From the IMG/VR virus record IMGVR_UViG_2690316076_000004: DNA of 37,028 bases; one strand, 5' to 3'. Origin of the DNA: a virus. Lineage: Duplodnaviria > Heunggongvirae > Uroviricota > Caudoviricetes. The position numbers and the translations under genes were made by a program. Below the pieces are notes generated by a model. That model made no database searches. It saw only the letters and a program-made list of their open reading frames with translations, and had not been told where the DNA came from. Every line of letters starts with the position of its first letter. Position 1 is the stretch's first letter. Below are positions 1,614-36,722 of the stretch, in pieces.

Positions 1614-1653
1614 GCCCCTATCGTTATAATACGCGGTAGGGGCGTTTTTGTTT
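1614..1653 (+). terminator. putative intrinsic terminator
   Basis: GCCCCTA...TAGGGGC stem followed by GTTTTTGTTT. Confidence 0.5.
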
Positions 1654-1662
1654 GGAAATGGT

Positions 1663-3342
1663 ATGAAAACTAAACTGTATTCGTATATTCGCTTCTCGTC
1701 TATGCGTCAGAATGATGGTTCGAGTTATGAACGACAAATCAGGATGGCGAGAGAGGTTGCGGCAAAGTATGACCTTGAACTGGTAAATGATTATCAGGAT
1801 CTGGGTGTATCTGCGTTTAAGGGTGCTAACTCTAAAACAGGGGCGCTATCTCGTTTCCTTGATGCAATTGGTAGATCCGTTCCTGTTGGTAGCTGGCTAT
1901 TCATTGAAAACTTGGACCGCTTATCCCGTGCCGATATTGTCAGTGCGCAGGAGTTATTCCTTTCAATCATCCGTAGGGGGATAACCATTGTTACTGGCAT
2001 GGATAACAAGATCTACTCGCTGGATACTGTTACCGCTAACCCGATGGACCTGATGTTCTCCATCCTTTTATTCATCCGTGGTAATGAGGAAAGCCAGACT
2101 AAGCGCAATCGTACTAACTCAAGCGCACTGATTAAGATTAAAGCTCATCAAGAAAATCCACAAAATCCGGCAGTGGCAATCGAGGAAGTTGGAAAGAATA
2201 TGTGGTGGACTGATACCACTTCCGGTTATGTGTTGCCTCATCCTACATACTTCCCTGTTGTTCAGGAGATTGTGGAATTACGGAAGAATGGACGTTCAAC
2301 CGCCGAAATACTGGATCACCTTAACGAGACATATACACCGCCACCAGCAGTAAGCAACAAGAAGCATTCAAAATGGTCACGGGCAATGGTTGAAAGGTTG
2401 TTCCATACCCGCGCTTTGATTGGTATCAAGGAAGTCTCTGTAGATGGTGTTAACTATGAGTTAAAGGATTATTACCCTCGTGTTATTGATGATGCTACGT
2501 TCTATCACCTTAAGAAAAATATTGGTGCTAGAGCATGGAACTTTGGAGACAAGGAAGAAGTTAAACCGATCCCCCTGCTTAGTGGTATTGGCCTATTGAA
2601 ATGTGATCATTGCGGTTGCGCTATGGTTAAAGTGAAGGGAACGAACAAACGTTCTGACCAGTATCGTTATACATGTGATGCGACCCGTTCACGTAGACTT
2701 GATTGCGAGCATCCAAACTGGAGTTTTCGAGGTGATCAATTAGAGAAAGCTGTATTGCAATTGCTGGCTGATAAAATATGGATTGCTGAGGACAAGGCTA
2801 ATCCGGTTCCGGCGTTGAAAGTACAGGTTGATGAAATATCACGCAAGATTGATAACCTGATTGCCCTTTCTGCTATGACAGGAGCAACGAAGGAGCTAGC
2901 CGATCAGATTACTACCCTCAATAGCGAGCGTGAAACACTCTACAATCAGATCAAGATGGCAGAAGAGGAAATGTATTCTGTGGACTCTCAAGGCTGGGAG
3001 AAGCTCGCAGAATTTGATTTAGAAGATGTTTATAACGAGGAACGACTAAAGGTCCGGTTTAAGATTAAGCAAGCTCTAAAGCGGATCGGGTGTAGCAGGA
3101 TTGACAGAAACAAAAACTTGTTTGTACTGGAATACATCGATGGAAAAACCCAGAGAGTTGTAATAGAAAATTCAAGAGGAACGAGGAAAGGCCGGATCTT
3201 CATTGATTTGAAGACTATCAATGATAGGCAGATTCTGGAGAGCAACGGGCTTGTTCTGCATCCATGTTTAGACATGCTGACAGATAAGAACTGGAAACCA
3301 GAAGAGGAAATACCAGGTCCATTACAGGAATTTGGAATTTAA
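1663..3342 (+). CDS. large serine recombinase (resolvase/integrase family)
   Basis: N-terminal resolvase catalytic pattern (YSYIRFSS...Q), recombinase domain, Cys-rich zinc ribbon (CDHCGC...CDATRSRRLDCEH), C-terminal coiled-coil; track start at 1648 is TTG, ATG at 1663 preferred. Confidence 0.85.
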   Translation: MKTKLYSYIRFSSMRQNDGSSYERQIRMAREVAAKYDLELVNDYQDLGVSAFKGANSKTGALSRFLDAIGRSVPVGSWLFIENLDRLSRADIVSAQELFLSIIRRGITIVTGMDNKIYSLDTVTANPMDLMFSILLFIRGNEESQTKRNRTNSSALIKIKAHQENPQNPAVAIEEVGKNMWWTDTTSGYVLPHPTYFPVVQEIVELRKNGRSTAEILDHLNETYTPPPAVSNKKHSKWSRAMVERLFHTRALIGIKEVSVDGVNYELKDYYPRVIDDATFYHLKKNIGARAWNFGDKEEVKPIPLLSGIGLLKCDHCGCAMVKVKGTNKRSDQYRYTCDATRSRRLDCEHPNWSFRGDQLEKAVLQLLADKIWIAEDKANPVPALKVQVDEISRKIDNLIALSAMTGATKELADQITTLNSERETLYNQIKMAEEEMYSVDSQGWEKLAEFDLEDVYNEERLKVRFKIKQALKRIGCSRIDRNKNLFVLEYIDGKTQRVVIENSRGTRKGRIFIDLKTINDRQILESNGLVLHPCLDMLTDKNWKPEEEIPGPLQEFGI

Positions 3343-17829: not shown

Positions 17830-20800
17830 TTAACCAAATAATTTTGCTTCAATAGCAGCAAGACGTTCACGAAGGATTTTATTTTCTTCGCTCATTTCTT
17901 GAATTGCTTTGATTAAAAGCGCGTTCACTGCGGAGTTTGAAATTGTTAAAATCTCTTCTGGGTTATCAAGACCACCAATTTTTGCGGTTTTAACAGCTTC
18001 CGGTAATACCTCTTGTAAATCCTGTGCGATAATACCAATCTCATGACCTATAACTTCTCGGTCATTAAGAGATTTAACTTTATCGTAGGTTTTAACTTTG
18101 AGTTTATTTACCTTATCTACCGCATTTTCTTCGTAGTCTTCAACATTAATTTTCAGACGACGGTCGGAACGAATATACACATCGTTAAAGTTACCATTAC
18201 CTGGAGAATAGAAAGTGCCATCATGATGGAACTCGTAGACAGCTTGAGGATGACCAGCAGCAGGTGAGTTTTCCGCAGATCCAACACGAATAATTGCTTG
18301 TCCCCAATTGTTGGGGACACGACGCATACCAAAATCGACGGCAGTTGTATACCCTTGATTGGTTATTAAACTTCTTCCTTTGATAATCGGATAATAACAG
18401 TCCTGTGAAACATAACCATGATCGACGAATATTGGAGCTTCTAATGACCATTGGTCATTCCATGCGCCAGATTGGCTAGCAGTCCAACGTTCACCGTGAA
18501 CATAGAATCGAACGTTATTGACATGAGTCATTTCGACGCCTTTCGGACTTAGCGCGATATCCCCCGCATTTGTAATGTTTATGGCAGCATTAGTAGCATA
18601 GCTATAGAACGCTAATCCATTATCAGCGCCACCTTTACCGATATACCAGTTGTTATTATCAGCACAAGTACCCAACAAATATATAGACGAATCTCCACTT
18701 TCGGCATTCATGATGATTGCGTCAGATCCACGATTAACTTTCAGTTTCCCGAAAAATGTGTTTTTAATGGTATTATCACCCAATCGTTCAAATTCTGCGA
18801 AAAATCCTTTTGAGTCACGAAGACTTAAAACGTTATTTCGACCTGTATTGCTTGCCCCCCAATGGACGAGTTCCATATAGTCCATAGATTGACGAGAACC
18901 AGCTTTAAACAAAAGGTTGTCTTCGAGACGAGTGCTACCATCAATCCCAAGATGTAAACACCGAGCGGTCGTTGTGCCCCCTAGATCCAATCCACCCTCA
19001 GCGAAATCATAACTAAATGGTCTACGATTATTCCAATTTCCAAAAGAATCTTTTAAATCGGTAGTCAGTATATGGAAACCAGTACCATCATTTCTAAAAA
19101 TTAAGCCATAATTGCCACCTTTAACAGCCAAACGCGCATTTTCAGATAATGCAACTTCGCTATTCATTACAATTTTCTGGCCTTTACCACCAGTAATATG
19201 TAATTCACCATCTTCAATCAGGTTTATCGAGTTTTGACCGTTATCGTTCCACCAAATAAAATCTTTGGTCTGACCATCACCGAAGCCAAACCAGCCATTA
19301 CGAACATCTGTACCAGTGCGATAATCAAAGAAGTTTAAATGACATGATTCATTTGGACCACGACGAAAATCAATTGCTGAGTTTCCACCTAAACCGCCAT
19401 CAATGGTCATTCTACGAATATGCAAACCGGATGCAGCCGACAGCAATAATTGTTGGTTTACATCATCGTATCCAGTAGCAAGACGATAATTCTGATCATC
19501 TACAGTTTCATGCCAGATAGTAGCGGGTGCGGAACTACGGAAGCGACGCAACTTTTTCTTAGCATTTGTTTGTTGTTCGTTCAAATGCTCAATGTCATAT
19601 TGGCCTTGATGGTTTCCACCAAAATTTAACGTTCCACGGTTGCTAAAGTTATTGAATGATGAAATGTTAAGAGCATCAAAAATTTCATCTGCAACAGGTT
19701 TTTCACCACCCAGATATTCAGGAGTATCCAACAGGTTTAAAGAAACACCACCGGACGAAACTTGATATTCTGCTAAAACAAATCCTGTATGTGCACCGTA
19801 GTAAGCGTAAAGATCGTAATTATCGCCATCGGTAGGAATTGCGCAAAAATATTGTTCGTAATACCAAATGCTATAATAAGCATTGAATACAACACCTTTC
19901 GGGCTATTGTTGCCGCAACGGATCACCAGTTCAATAACATTGGCTTGTCCATTCTGTCCGACGTTATAACCGTTACCACCAACCAAACGAATCTTAGCGG
20001 TGCGACCGTGTTGTTGTGGCATTGTCAAAGTGCCTAGTTTAAACCAACCGCCCTCGATACCAAAATTAAGCGTCTTCTGGAACAGTCGGTCAATTTCTGC
20101 TTTCGAATATGCGCCAATTTCGGCAGGAGTAGGTTTATCACCTTCATGATACATGCGGTGAGAATATGCCAAATGACCCAATTCATCATAGCCGTATGTT
20201 CTTACCGTAGCATGTGGATTAGACCCATAAGTGAACTCAAAACCACGAGCATGATTAACACCGGATGGATGTGGAACATGCAAGATCATAGCAATATGAT
20301 CAGCTAGATCATTGGTACGGAATGCACCAAAGTAATCAAGATTACGAGCACCTGGATCATCAAAATAGTTTGCGGTCTTAGACAGCAAATAACCATCAGT
20401 ATAAGTGTTTACGTGTTTTTTGATGTACTTACCGTCACTAGATCCATCGGCTGCATCAATACGGCTTTCTAAACGTGCAAGTTCGGAATCGGTGTAAGAC
20501 TTGTTATTGTCAACTTTGCTATGAATTGCTGAATTTTTGGCTTCAACATCACGGGTTAATGCTGCGACGTTATCCGCTGCCTCTTGCTTATTGGCTGCAA
20601 TCACACCAGTAAGGTTATTGTAGGTGTCAGTTAACTGATTTTCCGCATAGGCTTTATTTGCTGCGATAGTCCGATCAGTCTCGGCCTTAATCAAATCAAC
20701 CTTGTCATTGATTGCTTTGTCATTGCTTGCGATGGTTGCATCGGTACGGGATTTAATATCATCAACTTTTTTATTGATGCGGGTGTCCAGTTCCTGTGTT

Positions 20801-29184: not shown

Positions 29185-29787
29185 ATGCTAATTAATCAGC
29201 AAGAAAGAGATGAATTAGAATTAGCCTTGTCTTGTACCGATCATGAATATCGTTTGCCAGTTAAGCACCATCACAAGAAGACTGATTACACAACATCCGG
29301 CTTTAGTCGCGAGGAAGCGAAGCAAATTTTAATAGAGTTGTATCGCGATCAGGGATATACAGATATTCACAACTTCTTTAAGAAGCACCGAACATCACAG
29401 ACAGAGTTCCAGAGAGTCCGTGAATGGTTTGATTTTGATATCAAGCGTTATTATCGAGTGGATGACGGTCCGATCTATCGGTTGCAGTGGACACCGATCA
29501 GGGAAGTGTTGAAACAGAAGAGACTAAATCACGCTATTACACGCTATCGTAACGTGGCTTTTAAGAAAGGATATGGTGATACAAGGGAACTATTCGTTGA
29601 ACTCGCTAACGTGCGATATAGCCATTATTACAGGAATCCTAAAGAGTTCTTCGAAGTGCTGCGCAAGGTTGATATAAGTCGGGGTACATACTATTCACGG
29701 TTGAAGAAGTACGGGATTAAGGCAGAGTTCTTTATGAGTATTGACGATGGAGAACTTTTTCCGATAAAATGTAAGTCCTCTAAATAA
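29185..29787 (+). CDS. HTH DNA-binding protein (C-terminal resolvase-type helix-turn-helix)
   Basis: C-terminal [15 protein letters not shown] resembles Hin/resolvase-type HTH; AAGGGGG RBS. Confidence 0.5.
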
Positions 29788-29815: not shown

Positions 29816-30046
29816 ATGACTATGACTACTAAAGCTACTCGCGGTCGTCCTTGCCGTTTTGATCGTGAACAACTGGCAGCGATTGTAAAAGCGTACTATC
29901 AAGCACCGAAAGGTAAAGCCGAAAAAGAGCAAGTATTGAGTGAACACGGTATTTCAATCGCTCAATTCTACAAATCACTCCATAAAGTTGATTTGAAATT
30001 CTTTGTTCAGGTTGACGGTGAAATGGTAGAAGCAACAGGAATTTGA
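29816..30046 (+). CDS. small HTH protein, paralog of 33578-33757
   Basis: RGRPCRFDREQL ... GISIAQFYKSL parallels MARPVKFTREMI ... GIDRSGFYKLM in the 33578 gene; GGAG RBS. Confidence 0.5.
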   Translation: MTMTTKATRGRPCRFDREQLAAIVKAYYQAPKGKAEKEQVLSEHGISIAQFYKSLHKVDLKFFVQVDGEMVEATGI

Positions 30047-30350: not shown

Positions 30351-31184
30351 TCAGATCCCAAAATCAACAAGGGAAATTACGTTACCTGATTCACGAATCT
30401 GTTTAGCAGCTTTGTTTTGAATCAGAATAGTGTTATTTGGCTGCGGCAGTTTAAGAGTTGCTTTCTGTTCTTCTTCCAAAACGCCCAATTCAACCAGCAC
30501 CGGAAGAACATCAACAGTAAACTCAAGCTGGTAATGAGCATTCATGCGGCAGAAAGACAGAGAAGAGTCATTAGCAACATACCCACACGGCTTGTTATTT
30601 TCATCATAGACGCGCTCAATGTAGCCAGCAGTACGTAAGGCCGTCAGTGCTTGTTTAACCTTCGTAGCGCCCTTTTTAGCGCCTAACAGACGTGTCATAG
30701 AATGGCTATCTACGGATTTGCGAATGTGTAGCTCAATCAGTTTTTTATTTTTGCGTTTTTCATCTAATGCCAGTTCGATCCAGTCGGTTTCTTCAAAGTC
30801 CGCATACGGGTTAACAGGAGTATTATTGGCGGTTTTCAGTTTCTCTTCCAGATAATTCCAACGGTCAACCAGTTGGCGAGTAAATTCCGGTACGTTTTGA
30901 GCAATCAAGACAATCGAATCTAAGCGACCTTGCTCACCCTCAAACACATAATCTTTAACAGTAACAGCAAACCCTAAGTTATTGATTTTCTCGAAATTCT
31001 GCGTTGCAGGTTTTCGGATAACTTGGCGTTCAACCAGTCGGTTCATAGAAGTTTCAAGGTTTGAAAAACGAACTCCAATAAGGTCGGCAATTTCACGAAG
31101 AGTCATTTTTGCAACTTCGTTATCAACAACCAGAGACACGGAAGCAGTTTTAACAGCAGTATTCATAGTAGTAACAGTATTCAT
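30351..31184 (-). CDS. Rha/ORF6N-type phage regulatory protein (antirepressor-like)
   Basis: N-terminal MTLREIADLIGVRFSNLETSMNRL resembles Rha/ORF6N DNA-binding pattern; family call from memory. Confidence 0.5.
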   Translation of the reverse strand: MNTVTTMNTAVKTASVSLVVDNEVAKMTLREIADLIGVRFSNLETSMNRLVERQVIRKPATQNFEKINNLGFAVTVKDYVFEGEQGRLDSIVLIAQNVPEFTRQLVDRWNYLEEKLKTANNTPVNPYADFEETDWIELALDEKRKNKKLIELHIRKSVDSHSMTRLLGAKKGATKVKQALTALRTAGYIERVYDENNKPCGYVANDSSLSFCRMNAHYQLEFTVDVLPVLVELGVLEEEQKATLKLPQPNNTILIQNKAAKQIRESGNVISLVDFGI

Positions 31185-31273: not shown

Positions 31274-31606
31274 TTACCAATCGATTTCTACTTGGTCTTC
31301 TTCATAATAAGGAATCGCATATTCATAACGCCAGTTTTCGATGATTTCACGTTCTTCATTAGTAAGAAGGTGATTGCTAACTGGAGTTGCATTGTGATTA
31401 CCAGCTTCGAATTGCTCGCGAACTTCCAGCATTGCATGAATACCAGTTAAGGACATCAGATCAAACGGAACATGCATACTACGGGAGATAGTTTCACGGG
31501 ATACACCCCAATCATTTTCTACATGGCTAGGGGTTACAGAAACGGTTTTGCCGGAGATTTTAACAGTCCAGTCATACAGGGATTTAGTGATGGTAAATTC
31601 TTTCAT
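31274..31606 (-). CDS. hypothetical protein
   Basis: 110-aa ORF with AAGAGGA RBS; preceded by a strong promoter-like element. Confidence 0.55.
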   Translation of the reverse strand: MKEFTITKSLYDWTVKISGKTVSVTPSHVENDWGVSRETISRSMHVPFDLMSLTGIHAMLEVREQFEAGNHNATPVSNHLLTNEEREIIENWRYEYAIPYYEEDQVEIDW

Positions 31607-31662
31607 GTTACATCCTCTTTACAAATCTAGGTCAAATAGGTTCAAAGTTGTCAAGTGCGATA

Positions 31663-31704
31663 ATCATAAAAAAGTCATAAAATTTTGTCAATACCCCTTG
31701 ACAA
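31663..31704 (-). promoter_or_regulatory. sigma70-type promoter with overlapping palindromic operator
   Basis: minus strand TTGACA (31686-31691), 17-nt spacer, TATGAT (31663-31668); inverted repeat TTGTCAA-N6-TTGACAA (31685-31704) overlaps the -35. Confidence 0.5.
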
Positions 31705-31726
31705 GACGCCAAAGGGTTGACCTAAC

Positions 31727-32185
31727 TTACAGCATATCTAAGCCTTCATCGTAACCGTAGAAGCCATTCTGAGAAGAGAAACAGATTGGAGCGTAGTCTT
31801 CGTCTTCCTCATCTTCTTCATCTTGTTCTGGGGCTTCCTGAGCGGGTTGTTTACCGTAATCAGCCATAATCTGGTCAAGATCGGCGATCCCATAGTAAGA
31901 GCCTAAATCAACATCGTATTCACGAACATCAAACGGCAGGTCATCACGAACAATAATTGCTGGTAGATTCTGGTATTGTTCACGATCTTCATCAGTGAAG
32001 CAGTCAACTACCACCGTAGGACGACCATTGCGTTTAAGAGCATAGAAAGCAGTTGAATAGTTGGAGTCTTCGGAATGACGAATGATGTTATAACCACGAT
32101 TAGCGAAAACTTCTAGCATATGGAAGTTGCCGTAGTTTTCAGAGTCCAGACCCAGAAGTACGAAAGGAGTTTTAGTATTGATCAT
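31727..32185 (-). CDS. acidic protein (C-terminal Asp/Glu run)
   Basis: 152-aa ORF with AGAGGA RBS; C-terminus EAPEQDEEDEEDEDY. Confidence 0.55.
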   Translation of the reverse strand: MINTKTPFVLLGLDSENYGNFHMLEVFANRGYNIIRHSEDSNYSTAFYALKRNGRPTVVVDCFTDEDREQYQNLPAIIVRDDLPFDVREYDVDLGSYYGIADLDQIMADYGKQPAQEAPEQDEEDEEDEDYAPICFSSQNGFYGYDEGLDML

Positions 32186-32766
32186 AGTGGTATCCTCTAA
32201 AAAGAAAGTGAATCAATCTAATATTATTTATAAAGAGAAAATTCTTGTTATTATGAAAGGTGATTGGATTCAGTCGGCTTCGCCTCCTTCATGATTTTTG
32301 ATTAAATCATCGTCAAAACGAAGAAGTATCTTTAGAATATAAGAATCTTTCTTTTGGAGAAATAATAATCAGGAAGCAATTTAGCAACCGAAGGTTGCAA
32401 TCCCGAAGGGATACCAATACCTTTCATGATCATTAAAGTGATTATTACTATCTTTCTAGAATCAGTTAGTAACTAGTTTAAAATCCCTTTCGAGAAAATC
32501 CTTTCAGAAGTGATTCTCGATGCCACGCAGTGGCGTCGCAGACGTTTGAGAGTGAGCGAAGCGAGCGAGCAAACTAGTTAATTCCTTCTAAGACCATCTA
32601 GTATCATCTAGTTTAAATTAGTTGTTACTAGAAGCAATTGGTTGGCGCTTCGCGCAGTCGGGCTAAAGCCCTCCTAATATCTTTCTGGTTATTTGTTGTT
32701 TTTAGTTTTACACATGAGCGTAGCGAATGTGTTATATAATATCTATGCACGCCGAATCCCTGCTTT

Positions 32767-33010
32767 TGCCCCTCGCTAAGTTAATGTTTTATAAAGAGTT
32801 TTTCTCACCAATTCCTTTCAGGGGCAAATTTCAGGGGCAAAAATTAGATTTTCAGGGGCAATTATTGGCATTTCAGGGGCAAAAATGAGGGGCAAAATCA
32901 CCGTTTCCCAGAATTTCAGGGGCAAAAATATAGGGTTTCAGGGGCAAAAATGGGATGTGGAATCTAGGGGATTTTGGTTCAGGGGCAAAAATTCAGAATT
33001 TCAGGGGCAA
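32767..33010. repeat. iteron-like array of TTCAGGGGCAA
   Basis: exact 11-mers at 32817, 32830, 32851, 32872, 32915, 32937, 32978, 33000, variants at 32886 and ~32963, one inverted core at 32767-32775; spacing mostly 21-22 bp or multiples. Confidence 0.85.
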
Positions 33011-33100
33011 TTCCCATCAAATATTTTGATAGAAAATTCCTGTATATTATTTAATCAAAAAATCACCAAAAAGCGGCGTAAGTTAATGATTTAAAAAGAA

Positions 33101-33126
33101 TTGTCAAAAGGTCTCCGTGCTATAAT
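33101..33126 (+). promoter_or_regulatory. possible extended -10 promoter
   Basis: TTGTCA then TGC-TATAAT (TGnTATAAT) at 33118-33126; -35 spacing suboptimal (14 nt). Confidence 0.3.
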
Positions 33127-33206
33127 AGGTTATAAAGGTTGATAATCCTGCTCTACCATTTTCAAACAAAAATTTTGATAGTCATTTCTCGCTTAGGTCA
33201 AGTGTA

Positions 33207-33235
33207 TTGACAACTGTCAAGGATTATTTTATACT
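33207..33235 (+). promoter_or_regulatory. strong sigma70-type promoter
   Basis: TTGACA (33207-33212), 17-nt spacer, TATACT (33230-33235); overlaps TTGACAA/TGTCAA near-palindrome. Confidence 0.5.
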
Positions 33236-33371
33236 TTTTCTCACTGGTGGGGGTTGAAATTTTCTAAACAGTCCCCATATAGATGATAAGCAAGAATTTC
33301 CACGTTATAAATACATGTGTGAAATGATTGTTCACTTCTGAAAATCTCCTGATTCACTGCTAATTCATACA

Positions 33372-33400
33372 GCACTGGTTAGATATACAGTGCTTTTTCG
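33372..33400 (+). terminator. hairpin + T-tract (leader terminator/attenuator 1)
   Basis: AGCACTG-GTTAGATATA-CAGTGCT followed by TTTT. Confidence 0.4.
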
Positions 33401-33457
33401 GTTGAATATTGTACGAATTGATTAATAATTAATCTTCTCTTTAGCAATTCGTGCTCC

Positions 33458-33484
33458 CACTGATCGGATATACAGTGGTTTTAC
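33458..33484 (+). terminator. hairpin + T-tract (leader terminator/attenuator 2)
   Basis: CCACTG-ATCGGATATA-CAGTGG followed by TTTTA; same CACTG..GATATA..CAGTG architecture as 33372. Confidence 0.4.
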
Positions 33485-33523
33485 AGGGTTTTCTGAAAAT
33501 CATTTTATAAATACAAGTGTTCA

Positions 33524-33544
33524 GAGCGAAATGCTCTTTTTTAA
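33524..33544 (+). terminator. hairpin + T-tract directly upstream of small HTH gene
   Basis: AGAGC-GAAAT-GCTCT followed by TTTTTT, about 20 nt before the RBS of the 33578 gene. Confidence 0.45.
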
Positions 33545-33577
33545 GAAATTATTAATCCACATGTGAGGAATCGACTG

Positions 33578-33757
33578 ATGGCTAGACCTGTTAAGTTCAC
33601 TCGTGAAATGATTGTTGATATTGCTAAACGCTTTTACAGCGACACTGAGCGAGGCGGGGAAAACTTCTTTAAGAAGGAAGGAATTGATAGAAGCGGATTC
33701 TACAAGCTAATGAAGAAATACGAAATTCAGGTAAAGATTAACGTTCAAGTTTGTTAA
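33578..33757 (+). CDS. small HTH protein, paralog of 29816-30046
   Basis: ATG at 33578 with TGAGGAA RBS (track start 33563 is GTG); sequence parallels the 76-aa protein. Confidence 0.5.
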   Translation: MARPVKFTREMIVDIAKRFYSDTERGGENFFKKEGIDRSGFYKLMKKYEIQVKINVQVC

Positions 33758-33871: not shown

Positions 33872-34834
33872 ATGTTATTTTCCGCTAACTTTTTCACTAA
33901 CGAAGTAACCAACGCTAAAGCAGTTATCAAATTTGGCACCGAAGCAAACAAGAAGATTCAGCCGAAAGTTGTTGCTCATGTTTCCTTTGCGCAGCAGAAA
34001 TCCGCTTTCGCTGGCTTTAAAGCACATCGTGAAGCACTGATCGCGGCTGGCTTTGGTGTTGACGGTAAACTGCCTAACGGCATTCGTAAAGCAATCGACC
34101 GCGTTAAACCTGCTAAAGACGTTGCAGTAGACCACATCGTTACTTTCACCGTTAAGAACTCTTCTGAACTGTTCCACCTAGTGATTGCTGGTGATACTGC
34201 TATCGTTTCCGCTCCTAACATGGATTTTCAGGATACCGCTGATTGCAACATTACCTTTGGTCGTCGTAAAGAAGTTACCGGAAAAGCTAAACTGAACTTC
34301 ACCAAATCCGGCAATCCTTACTTTGCTGTATTCTTTAACAGCCACGCTACTGAGAAAGAAGTAGTAGAACTGGTTGCATATGAAGGTGAAGAAAAAGCAC
34401 GTATTGAATCTTGCGACGCTTTCGTAGAACTGGAAGCACAGGTTAATGCTGTTTCTCCGGTTGCTGTTGAAGATCGTTTCTCTGCACTGGAAGCACAGAT
34501 CGCAGAACTGAAAGCTGCACTGAAAGAAAAAGACCAGATCATCGAAGCACAGAAAGCTGAGATTGAAGAACTGAAAGCTAAAGAAGTTGCTCCGGTTGCT
34601 GTTGAAGCAGATCGGGAAGTTGAATCTAAAGACTTCTTTACTCAAGCGGTTGAATCTAAAGACAAACAAGCTCTTTGGATTCTGCTTAACGAAAAGCGTA
34701 CTGTTGCAGACGTTGCAGAATGGAACAAATACCTGATTAAGAAAAATGGTTCTTCCGTTCAATTCATCGATTTAATGACAGTTAAAGTTTTTGATGCGTT
34801 CGAAAATGTGTTCGACGTTCGCAAAGCAGCTTAA
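33872..34834 (+). CDS. hypothetical protein with host-like high-expression codon usage and central coiled-coil
   Basis: 320-aa ORF with AGGAG RBS; codons dominated by CTG, CGT, GGT, AAC, GAC, ACC unlike the AT-rich structural genes; coiled-coil EAQIAELKAALKEKDQIIEAQKAEIEELKAK. Confidence 0.65.
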   Translation: MLFSANFFTNEVTNAKAVIKFGTEANKKIQPKVVAHVSFAQQKSAFAGFKAHREALIAAGFGVDGKLPNGIRKAIDRVKPAKDVAVDHIVTFTVKNSSELFHLVIAGDTAIVSAPNMDFQDTADCNITFGRRKEVTGKAKLNFTKSGNPYFAVFFNSHATEKEVVELVAYEGEEKARIESCDAFVELEAQVNAVSPVAVEDRFSALEAQIAELKAALKEKDQIIEAQKAEIEELKAKEVAPVAVEADREVESKDFFTQAVESKDKQALWILLNEKRTVADVAEWNKYLIKKNGSSVQFIDLMTVKVFDAFENVFDVRKAA

Positions 34835-36573: not shown

Positions 36574-36722
36574 CTGCACTGATCACGTTTTAAAATCTCA
36601 CACGCGTATCAAATACCGGGGTGCCGAAAACTCCCTTTATTTCACCCGTGGAACAGTACCTTTTGATTTTGTCAAGTCTTTTTTATAAATAATCGAAAAT
36701 ATTTTTCACACGAGGGCAAATC

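Follow-up and report, generated by a model that had tools for sequence, protein, structure and literature searches.

Near-consensus promoters must be silenced in a lysogen. In phage lambda, strong early promoters (P_L and P_R) point outwards from the immunity region and carry the related short sites of O_L and O_R, which are 17-bp dyads in triplets, over the -35 element, the spacer and the start. In the C operators of phage P2 a half-site recurs in the same orientation at a distance of about two helical turns, the pair flanking promoter elements. In the immI region of phage P22 a very strong promoter, P_ant, with O_arc between its -35 and -10 and O_mnt at its start site, is followed by a small first gene for a ribbon-helix-helix autoregulator and then by the antirepressor gene ant, and a second repressor gene is divergent from them. 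Here we describe a locus that shares features with each of these systems in a 37,028-nt stretch of DNA (IMG/VR record IMGVR_UViG_2690316076_000004; hereafter the window), a temperate siphovirus-like prophage of Escherichia coli, in which the heptamer TTGTCAA, or its complement TTGACAA, recurs at two strong promoters that we call P_A and P_B. An earlier note on this DNA had proposed the heptamer as a candidate operator family, with palindromic arrangements over -35 elements and with the small helix-turn-helix (HTH) proteins, and possibly the Rha-like protein, encoded nearby as candidate binders. We find that the clustering of the heptamer is real and that its unit had been mis-delimited, the conserved unit of the E. 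coli lineage being a 28-bp bipartite element, TAGGTCAA-N13-TGTCAAG, that is present twice around P_A and once over P_B.

Every heptamer position given in the earlier note is correct: TTGTCAA or TTGACAA starts at 31648, 31685, 31698, 33101, 33207 and 36669, and the related word CTGTCAA occupies 33214-33220. Over the whole window the motif is at background frequency, with 10 matches against 8.78 +/- 3.3 expected, and its one-mismatch forms are depleted (130 against 169 expected). By contrast, the intergenic DNA, 4,456 nt in total, contains all six non-coding copies against an expectation of 0.77, and 0 of 5,000 first-order simulations gave six or more. Half of the ten matches fall inside 1.6 kb (scan probability, about 0.003). 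The two palindromic arrangements also stand where they had been placed, TTGTCAA-N6-TTGACAA (31685-31704) overlapping the -35 of minus-strand promoter P_A and TTGACAA-CTGTCAA overlapping that of plus-strand promoter P_B. P_A and P_B match the sigma-70 consensus at 11 of 12 positions and are the only promoters in the 37 kb to do so, every other site reaching at most 10 of 12. They point outwards, about 1.5 kb apart, and their likeness from -35 to -10 surfaced as an inverted repeat (I1) in the repeat search. Positions relative to the start are computed from start sites inferred from the -10 location, an A at about 31656 for P_A and about 33242 for P_B.

A -10 partner at a distance of 16-18 bp is available to only two of the words, 31691-31686 on the minus strand and 33207-33212 on the plus strand. 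None was found at this distance for the boxes at 31648, 31698, 33214, 33101 and 36669, indicating that these non-promoter boxes are not promoters. Moreover, the seventh base (A) of the P_B -35 word varies among relatives, so ordinary -35 elements account for 31685 and 33207. The non-promoter boxes have as their conserved core TGTCAAG (on the other strand, C followed by TTGACA), and not TTGACAA. The idea of one operator family thus holds in part: extra copies do occur at operator positions and are conserved, whereas two of the seven are simply -35 hexamers and the 33101 copy is variable.

Repeat and pattern searches of the window found the 28-bp element three times without a mismatch, against 0.00 expected copies (Table 1). 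Their three N13 spacers are mutually unrelated, and exact boxes joined by unrelated spacers indicate selection on the boxes and their spacing rather than simple duplication. In all three copies the half-sites GGTCAA and TGTCAA form direct repeats 21 bp apart from start to start; as 21 bp amounts to two helical turns, the half-sites lie on one face of the DNA. This direct-repeat geometry at an early promoter is that of the P2 C operators, although here there are three sites, two of them inverted around one promoter, and no P2 C homologue was detected in Pfam, PHROGs and NCBIfam scans. The element has no dyad symmetry and in this respect differs from the 17-bp dyads of lambda. Local palindromes do exist, with opposite polarity and unequal gaps (GTCAA-N8-TTGAC at P_A and TTGAC-N4-GTCAA at P_B). 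The proposal of palindromic operators over -35 elements therefore survives as far as the words do overlap or adjoin the -35s; it fails in that the unit of the E. coli lineage is a bipartite direct repeat and not a simple palindrome. At P_B the inner box, CTGTCAAG, sits in the spacer between -35 and -10. Alternatively, each element could be a promoter on the opposite strand, reading TTGACA, 17 bp and CCTA(A/G), or 19 bp to TAnnnT with C at -13, for a sigma-S-like or phage factor. All three copies have TTGACA exactly 17 bp from CCTA (CCTAAC, CCTAGA and CCTAAG), and two of the three read TAACTT or TAGATT at 19 bp; even so, we consider such promoters highly improbable.

Table 1. Coordinates of the boxes, promoters and genes discussed (window positions; positions relative to the start use the predicted start sites).
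Feature	Position	Strand	Remarks
28-bp element, upstream copy at P_A	31697-31724	-	-68 to -41; inner box is the 31698 heptamer
28-bp element, downstream copy at P_A	31628-31655	+	+2 to +29; inverted relative to the upstream copy; inner box is the 31648 heptamer
28-bp element at P_B	33194-33221	+	about -48 to -21; outer box upstream of the -35
P_A	31663-31691	-	-35 TTGACA 31691-31686 (31685 heptamer), 17 nt, -10 TATGAT 31668-31663
P_B	33207-33235	+	-35 TTGACA 33207-33212 (33207 heptamer), 17 nt, -10 TATACT 33230-33235
Hairpin	31687-31722	-	directly behind the E stop codon; 5' arm GTCA ACCCTTTGGC, 3' arm GTCAAGGGGT..TGAC
Solitary box TTGTCAAG	36669-36676	+	TerS-K intergenic region; exactly at the junction between conserved and alternative-allele mosaic segments
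TTGTCAA	33101-33107	+	about 13-14 nt upstream of the extended -10 promoter TGcTATAAT (33118-33126)
Gene A	29185-29787	+	200 aa
Gene B	29816-30046	+	76 aa
Gene C	30351-31184	-	Rha/Ant-like; P_A operon
Gene D	31274-31606	-	first gene of the P_A operon
Gene E	31727-32185		152 aa; co-directional with the P_A operon, between the promoters ('cI position')
Gene F	33563-33757	+	59-64 aa; first gene of the P_B operon, Cro-like position; one of the small HTH proteins of the earlier note
Gene G	33872-34834		probable replication gene; P_B operon
Large serine recombinase (serine integrase)	1648-3342		

The prophage family to which the window belongs is strongly mosaic, but in the intergenic region of P_A it has a conserved island. 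Over 120 bp of this region, the comparison of 29 distinct E. coli relatives shows variation at 1 of 30 box positions as against 45 of 78 others (Fisher, 5e-8), which, judged from the alignment, means that the boxes are under strong purifying selection. The spacer sequence at P_A is by comparison freely variable, for example from ATAGGTTCAAAG to ATATAATAAAAG. More distant relatives were obtained through homologues of protein A and comprise prophages of Salmonella (L045, L046, L048 and also L049), whose protein A is only 45-56% identical, and of Proteus (L044). P_A is retained in Salmonella L045, L046 and L048, and GTCAAGGGGT, upstream of its -35, is invariant in the window, L047, L045, L046 and L048. 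The word TTGACAA at +3 to +9 of P_A is invariant across the E. coli and Salmonella relatives, where it is the longest invariant intergenic block, and its distance from GTCAAGGGGT stays constant at 43-44 bp in three Salmonella prophages with diverged flanks. Both inner boxes at P_A are likewise unchanged between the E. coli and Salmonella relatives. We considered whether the box at +2 could be the -35 of a tandem promoter and rejected this, since no relative offers it a -10 partner; the box is therefore not a second promoter.

Conservation extends to the other sites. In the E. coli relatives the outer box TAGGTCAA pairs with TGTCAAG at the 13-nt spacing. TTGACA and TGTCAAG at P_B are invariant in 15 E. 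coli relatives, and the spacer word TGTCAAG is kept in Salmonella L045 and L046, with the variants GGTCAAC in L049, TTGCAAG in L048 and AAGCAAG in Proteus L044. The solitary box TTGTCAAG at 36669 has no TAGGTCAA partner and, by reading, no convincing -10 on either strand; it is invariant in 16 distinct E. coli relatives, is found in Salmonella L045, L046 and L048, appears as ATGTCAAG in L049 and is absent from Proteus L044. The heptamer at 33101 behaves otherwise, varying in 13 of 15 E. coli relatives (TTATCAA, TTTTCAA, TGATCAA and others) while the adjoining TGcTATAAT is conserved, although Salmonella L045 and L046 have TTGTCAA at the same distance from the extended -10. On this alignment evidence the 33101 copy probably lies outside the box set. 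What is shown so far is that the sites exist in this geometry, that they recur more than chance would have it and that they are selectively conserved.

What these boxes do is a separate question. The reading that we favor, at about even odds, is that a trans-acting regulator of the two strong early promoters uses the extra TTGACA-type words as operator boxes. Under it, a regulator would occupy the 28-bp sites as an inverted pair around P_A and as a single site over the -35 and spacer of P_B, recognizing an inner half, TGTCAAG, that in the E. coli lineage forms part of the bipartite TAGGTCAA-N13-TGTCAAG site. Occupancy would block the binding or escape of RNA polymerase at both promoters, and would keep silent the Rha/Ant-like operon (D, then C) downstream of P_A and the operon of F, G and H, with its probable replication gene, that follows a leader of about 335 nt downstream of P_B, as O_L and O_R do for P_L and P_R. 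Protein binding at the boxes, its repressive effect and the identity of the binder are what we infer. Several observations favor operators. Among those described above are the exact recurrence of the element around unrelated spacers, the near-invariance of the boxes in the 29 relatives, the persistence of the inner boxes in Salmonella, the +2 box without a -10 and the intergenic enrichment of the heptamer. Related sites recur at both early promoters, and they overlap or adjoin the -35, the spacer and the start, as operators of the lambda kind do. Since P_A and P_B are 11/12 promoters in an integrated prophage with a serine integrase, they would need silencing, and we count this for operators. 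Also on this side, P_B heads an operon of early type, with a leader that carries a boxA-like 19-mer and terminator hairpins, a first gene that is HTH-like, and a gene, G, that co-varies with iterons.

The likeness to known immunity regions is considerable and incomplete. As in lambda, two strong early promoters face outwards with related short sites over -35, spacer and start, and the rightward operon, whose leader includes a boxA-like word and terminator hairpins, has a small HTH-like gene first and a probable replication gene next. Unlike lambda, the region contains no recognizable CI or Cro, its inter-promoter gene E models as Rossmann-like with an acidic tail, and its sites, showing no co-variation with neighboring genes, define no immunity type. 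P22 immI is matched by the very strong P_A, by its small first gene and the Ant/Rha-like gene behind it, and by sites at or upstream of the -35 and at +2 to +9. It differs in that D occurs as unrelated alleles lacking ribbon-helix-helix matches, in that E is co-directional and no divergent mnt-like gene exists, and in that the same boxes stand at a second, unrelated operon (P_B).

A number of points weigh against operators. Most of the outer TAGGTCAA boxes have been lost from the Salmonella relatives. Many E. coli relatives have a second P_B allele, in which the promoters are in tandem and the spacer box is absent, while the boxes at P_A are kept. No CI/Cro-type, Arc/Mnt-type or P2 C-type repressor was found among the early-region and arm-end proteins scanned with Pfam, PHROGs and NCBIfam, and the boxes do not co-vary with the alleles of D, F, the N terminus of C, G or E, unlike the sites of classical immunity regions. 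A hairpin has its 3' arm in the upstream inner box at P_A, which could alone account for the conservation of that box, and each box equals the extended -35 consensus of sigma-70, so that RNA polymerase is an alternative ligand. Finally, the transcription starts are predicted ones.

The hairpin just mentioned follows the stop codon of E, includes the upstream inner box of P_A and extends into the P_A -35. Its consensus fold (RNAalifold) has 14 pairs at -9.9 kcal/mol with an unfavorable covariation term, and it is terminator-like with a poor T-run; the terminator scan made no call there. Read from the sequences, L045, L046 and L048 have a hairpin with the same 3' arm and another loop or 5' arm. 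A second coincidence is found at P_B, where the outer box falls on a 9/12 leftward promoter call (33201-33172, with TTGACC at 33201) whose -10 region is conserved. Such overlaps raise the possibility that there is nothing but promoter and terminator architecture, each word being conserved for its own local reason with no common binder: two words as the true -35s of P_A and P_B, others as the 3' arm of the post-E hairpin, as the 5' end of the D mRNA and as a weak leftward promoter. This is in keeping with the two plain -35 hexamers among the seven sites, with the preservation of the hairpin around other loops in Salmonella, with the leftward promoter call, with the variability of the 33101 copy and with a whole-window count at expectation. 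However, it leaves unexplained why three exact copies should specify 15 bases at identical spacing around unrelated spacers, why TGTCAAG is invariant in a P_B spacer that is not transcribed from P_B, and why C followed by TTGACA recurs at four conserved places lacking a -10, and the hairpin itself has no usable T-run. We consider architecture alone unlikely.

The equivalence of the boxes with -35 elements suggests another ligand, namely a host factor common to E. coli and Salmonella. Every box holds TTGACA and two are true -35s with a -10 at 17 bp, in contrast to the other four or five, which lack a -10 at 16-18 bp on their own strand. One version invokes region 4 of sigma-70, with the -35-only sites holding or competing for polymerase beside the real promoters; the core, C followed by TTGACA, is the extended -35 consensus of E. 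coli promoters. Another invokes a regulator of the FNR/CRP family at the P_B palindrome TTGAC-N4-GTCAA, which resembles the FNR consensus TTGAT-N4-ATCAA: it agrees with that palindrome at 8 of 10 positions by direct comparison, is centered near -28, and has no counterpart of such arrangement at P_A. A host ligand would fit the independence of the boxes from all mosaic phage alleles, the retention of TTGAC-N4-GTCAA in E. coli relatives with the first P_B allele and in L045 and L046, and the lack of boxes in the Proteus relative. By contrast, the half-sites at P_A have the opposite polarity with an 8-bp gap, which is not of FNR/CRP type, an FNR site centered near -28 would be atypical for a family whose members act from about -41.5 or over the promoter, and neither version explains the outer TAGGTCAA box and its fixed 13-nt spacing. 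We judge a host ligand to be rather unlikely, though still a serious rival.

Should the boxes be operators, they are most likely bound by a factor that the whole family shares, and not by one of the allelic neighbors D, F, C and G. The proposal that the small HTH proteins or the Rha-like protein bind the motif found no support from co-variation, given that the boxes are the same across alleles of D, F and the C N terminus, and the HTH nature of the small proteins has sub-threshold Pfam matches and a medium-confidence model as its sole basis. D was ruled out as binder because three unrelated alleles (110, about 51 and 59 aa), with no match to a ribbon-helix-helix family, follow identical boxes. 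Protein C matches PHROG 63 'anti-repressor Ant' (2e-15), and its relatives carry PF09669 Phage_pRha, one of them being labeled 'Rha family transcriptional regulator' by the Prokaryotic Genome Annotation Pipeline (PGAP); its N-terminal winged helix was rejected as binder since its recognition region varies greatly and the boxes do not. L049 has no C and yet has a 36669-type box and the GGTCAAC box at P_B. A Cro-like role for F as the specific binder found no support, as a single F allele can be accompanied by the P_B spacer box or lack it and differing F alleles are found with the same box, and G was dismissed because it co-varies with iterons and not with boxes. E was rejected as repressor because its AlphaFold2 (AF2) model, a Rossmann-like alpha/beta N-terminal domain with a disordered acidic tail and no significant structural neighbor, is not a DNA-binding fold. 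The tail of E is very acidic, ends in the conserved aromatic motif FYGYDEGLDML and is reminiscent of the partner-binding tails of single-stranded DNA-binding protein (SSB) or gp2.5 type; the gene is widespread in E. coli and Shigella prophages, where it is always annotated 'hypothetical'.

Genes A and B are conserved throughout the prophage family, which makes their products candidate trans-acting binders. A domain of about 55 aa occurs in two tandem copies in A and in one copy each in B and F; it matches no Pfam, PHROG or NCBIfam family and follows the pattern (G/A)RPxxF(T/D)xE ... GI(S/D)xxxF(Y/H)K ... beta-hairpin. The model of protein A, at a predicted local distance difference test (pLDDT) score of 72, shows two repeats of three helices and a hairpin, and A, B and F are weakly HTH-like. 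As a first guess, protein A would be the binder, its tandem domains fitting a direct-repeat site. A wider conjecture, which we hold to be quite doubtful, is that the domain (three helices and a beta-hairpin, once in B, once in F and twice in tandem in A) represents a new small DNA-binding family that controls early promoters in place of a recognizable CI/Cro switch, with A reading the bipartite site and competing with sigma region 4 for -35-like DNA, the inner half mimicking a -35. B is near-identical between E. coli and Salmonella phages despite differing neighbors. It is missing from one Salmonella relative that keeps some boxes and is present in the Proteus relative, which has none.

The DNA between and beyond the two promoters contains further non-coding features. 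Within a 1.4-kb gene-free stretch, an iteron array at 32800-33015 comprises about nine direct copies of TTTCAGGGGCAAAAAT at a spacing of 21-22 nt or double that, with one inverted copy at 32754-32774. Only those relatives that have gene G share the array and the 300 nt to its left, and relatives with other G alleles have iterons of a different sequence (GCTAGGGAT in Salmonella and Proteus, CCTACACT elsewhere), so that the array and G look like an origin and its initiator that are exchanged together as a module. The TAGTGTAGG repeats of the second P_B allele had been considered as alternative operators and were rejected, being the iterons of another replication module. Flanking the array on both sides is a 24-nt direct repeat, TAAGTTAATGtTTTAtAAAGAgTT, 88% identical between 32777-32800 and 33079-33102, which may mark the boundaries of the exchangeable origin module. 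The non-coding stretch at 32280-32720 contains G+C mini-hairpins (GCGAAGC, CCGAAGG twice, GCCACGCAGTGGC, GCGCTTCGCGC and GGGCTAAAGCCC) with A+T-rich words such as CTTTCTAGAA between them, and the same architecture is repeated with different sequence in the Salmonella and Proteus relatives; it could represent structured RNA or single-strand DNA signals beside the origin. No Rfam family reached its gathering score, and in 31600-33600 the matches at E <= 5 were at chance level.

The P_B leader (33243-33562) folds better than shuffled sequence (z = -2.8) and contains two CACTG..CAGTG hairpins followed by T-runs and a terminator-like hairpin at 33523-33537. A 19-mer within it, CTCTTTAGCAATTCGTGCT (33438-33456), is exact in the E. 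coli and Salmonella relatives. We take it to resemble a boxA (CTCTTTA) with a small stem-loop, that is, a nut site, and it may be a nut-like antitermination site.

An identical copy of the prophage resides in a 140-kb chromosomal contig of GCA_001285265.1, where a PHP-domain gene is interrupted at the right end (37028) and a 2-hydroxyacid dehydrogenase gene adjoins; we take these to be ycdX and ghrA. Both ends of the window coincide exactly with gene boundaries, which places the attachment sites immediately beyond it. The host gene interrupted differs by strain (right end of the window, L042 1075-1160 and L043 30336-30647), being the PHP-domain gene in the E. coli, Salmonella and Proteus relatives and hicB in a close relative from strain PE15, the L043 prophage. 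The PE15 prophage also carries the colistin-resistance gene mcr-1, in an ISApl1-mcr-1-PAP2-ISApl1 composite transposon (L043 24037-28690) just downstream of its G-like gene. In another relative, L033 (5628-5882), a deletion fuses the N terminus of E to the C terminus of the 59-aa D allele with loss of P_A and its boxes; L033 is probably a decaying prophage. The window encodes a GpA-type large terminase and a Nu1-like small terminase, and nearly all of its early genes are annotated 'hypothetical'. Its tail-fiber gene (16869-20380, 1,137 aa) has 76-88% nucleotide identity to the distal long-tail-fiber genes of T4-like E. coli phages and no other part of the window closely matches a sequenced phage; apart from this similarity, the phage database contained no related characterized phage. 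A search of species-representative genomes with E gave no match, and in the literature we found nothing on this phage family or on a TTGTCAA operator. Relatives are present in 58 of 5,426 complete E. coli genomes (about 1%), in many IMG/VR contigs, and in Salmonella and Proteus prophages with the same gene order.

Conserved boxes on early promoters are control elements of an ordinary kind, here in an unstudied phage family; they are to be expected in any temperate phage, and their description is useful annotation rather than a surprise. If they are operators, the boxes would mark the genetic switch of a prophage family found in about 1% of complete E. coli genomes and in Salmonella, and known operators would provide a handle for finding the repressor and may help to predict what induces these prophages.

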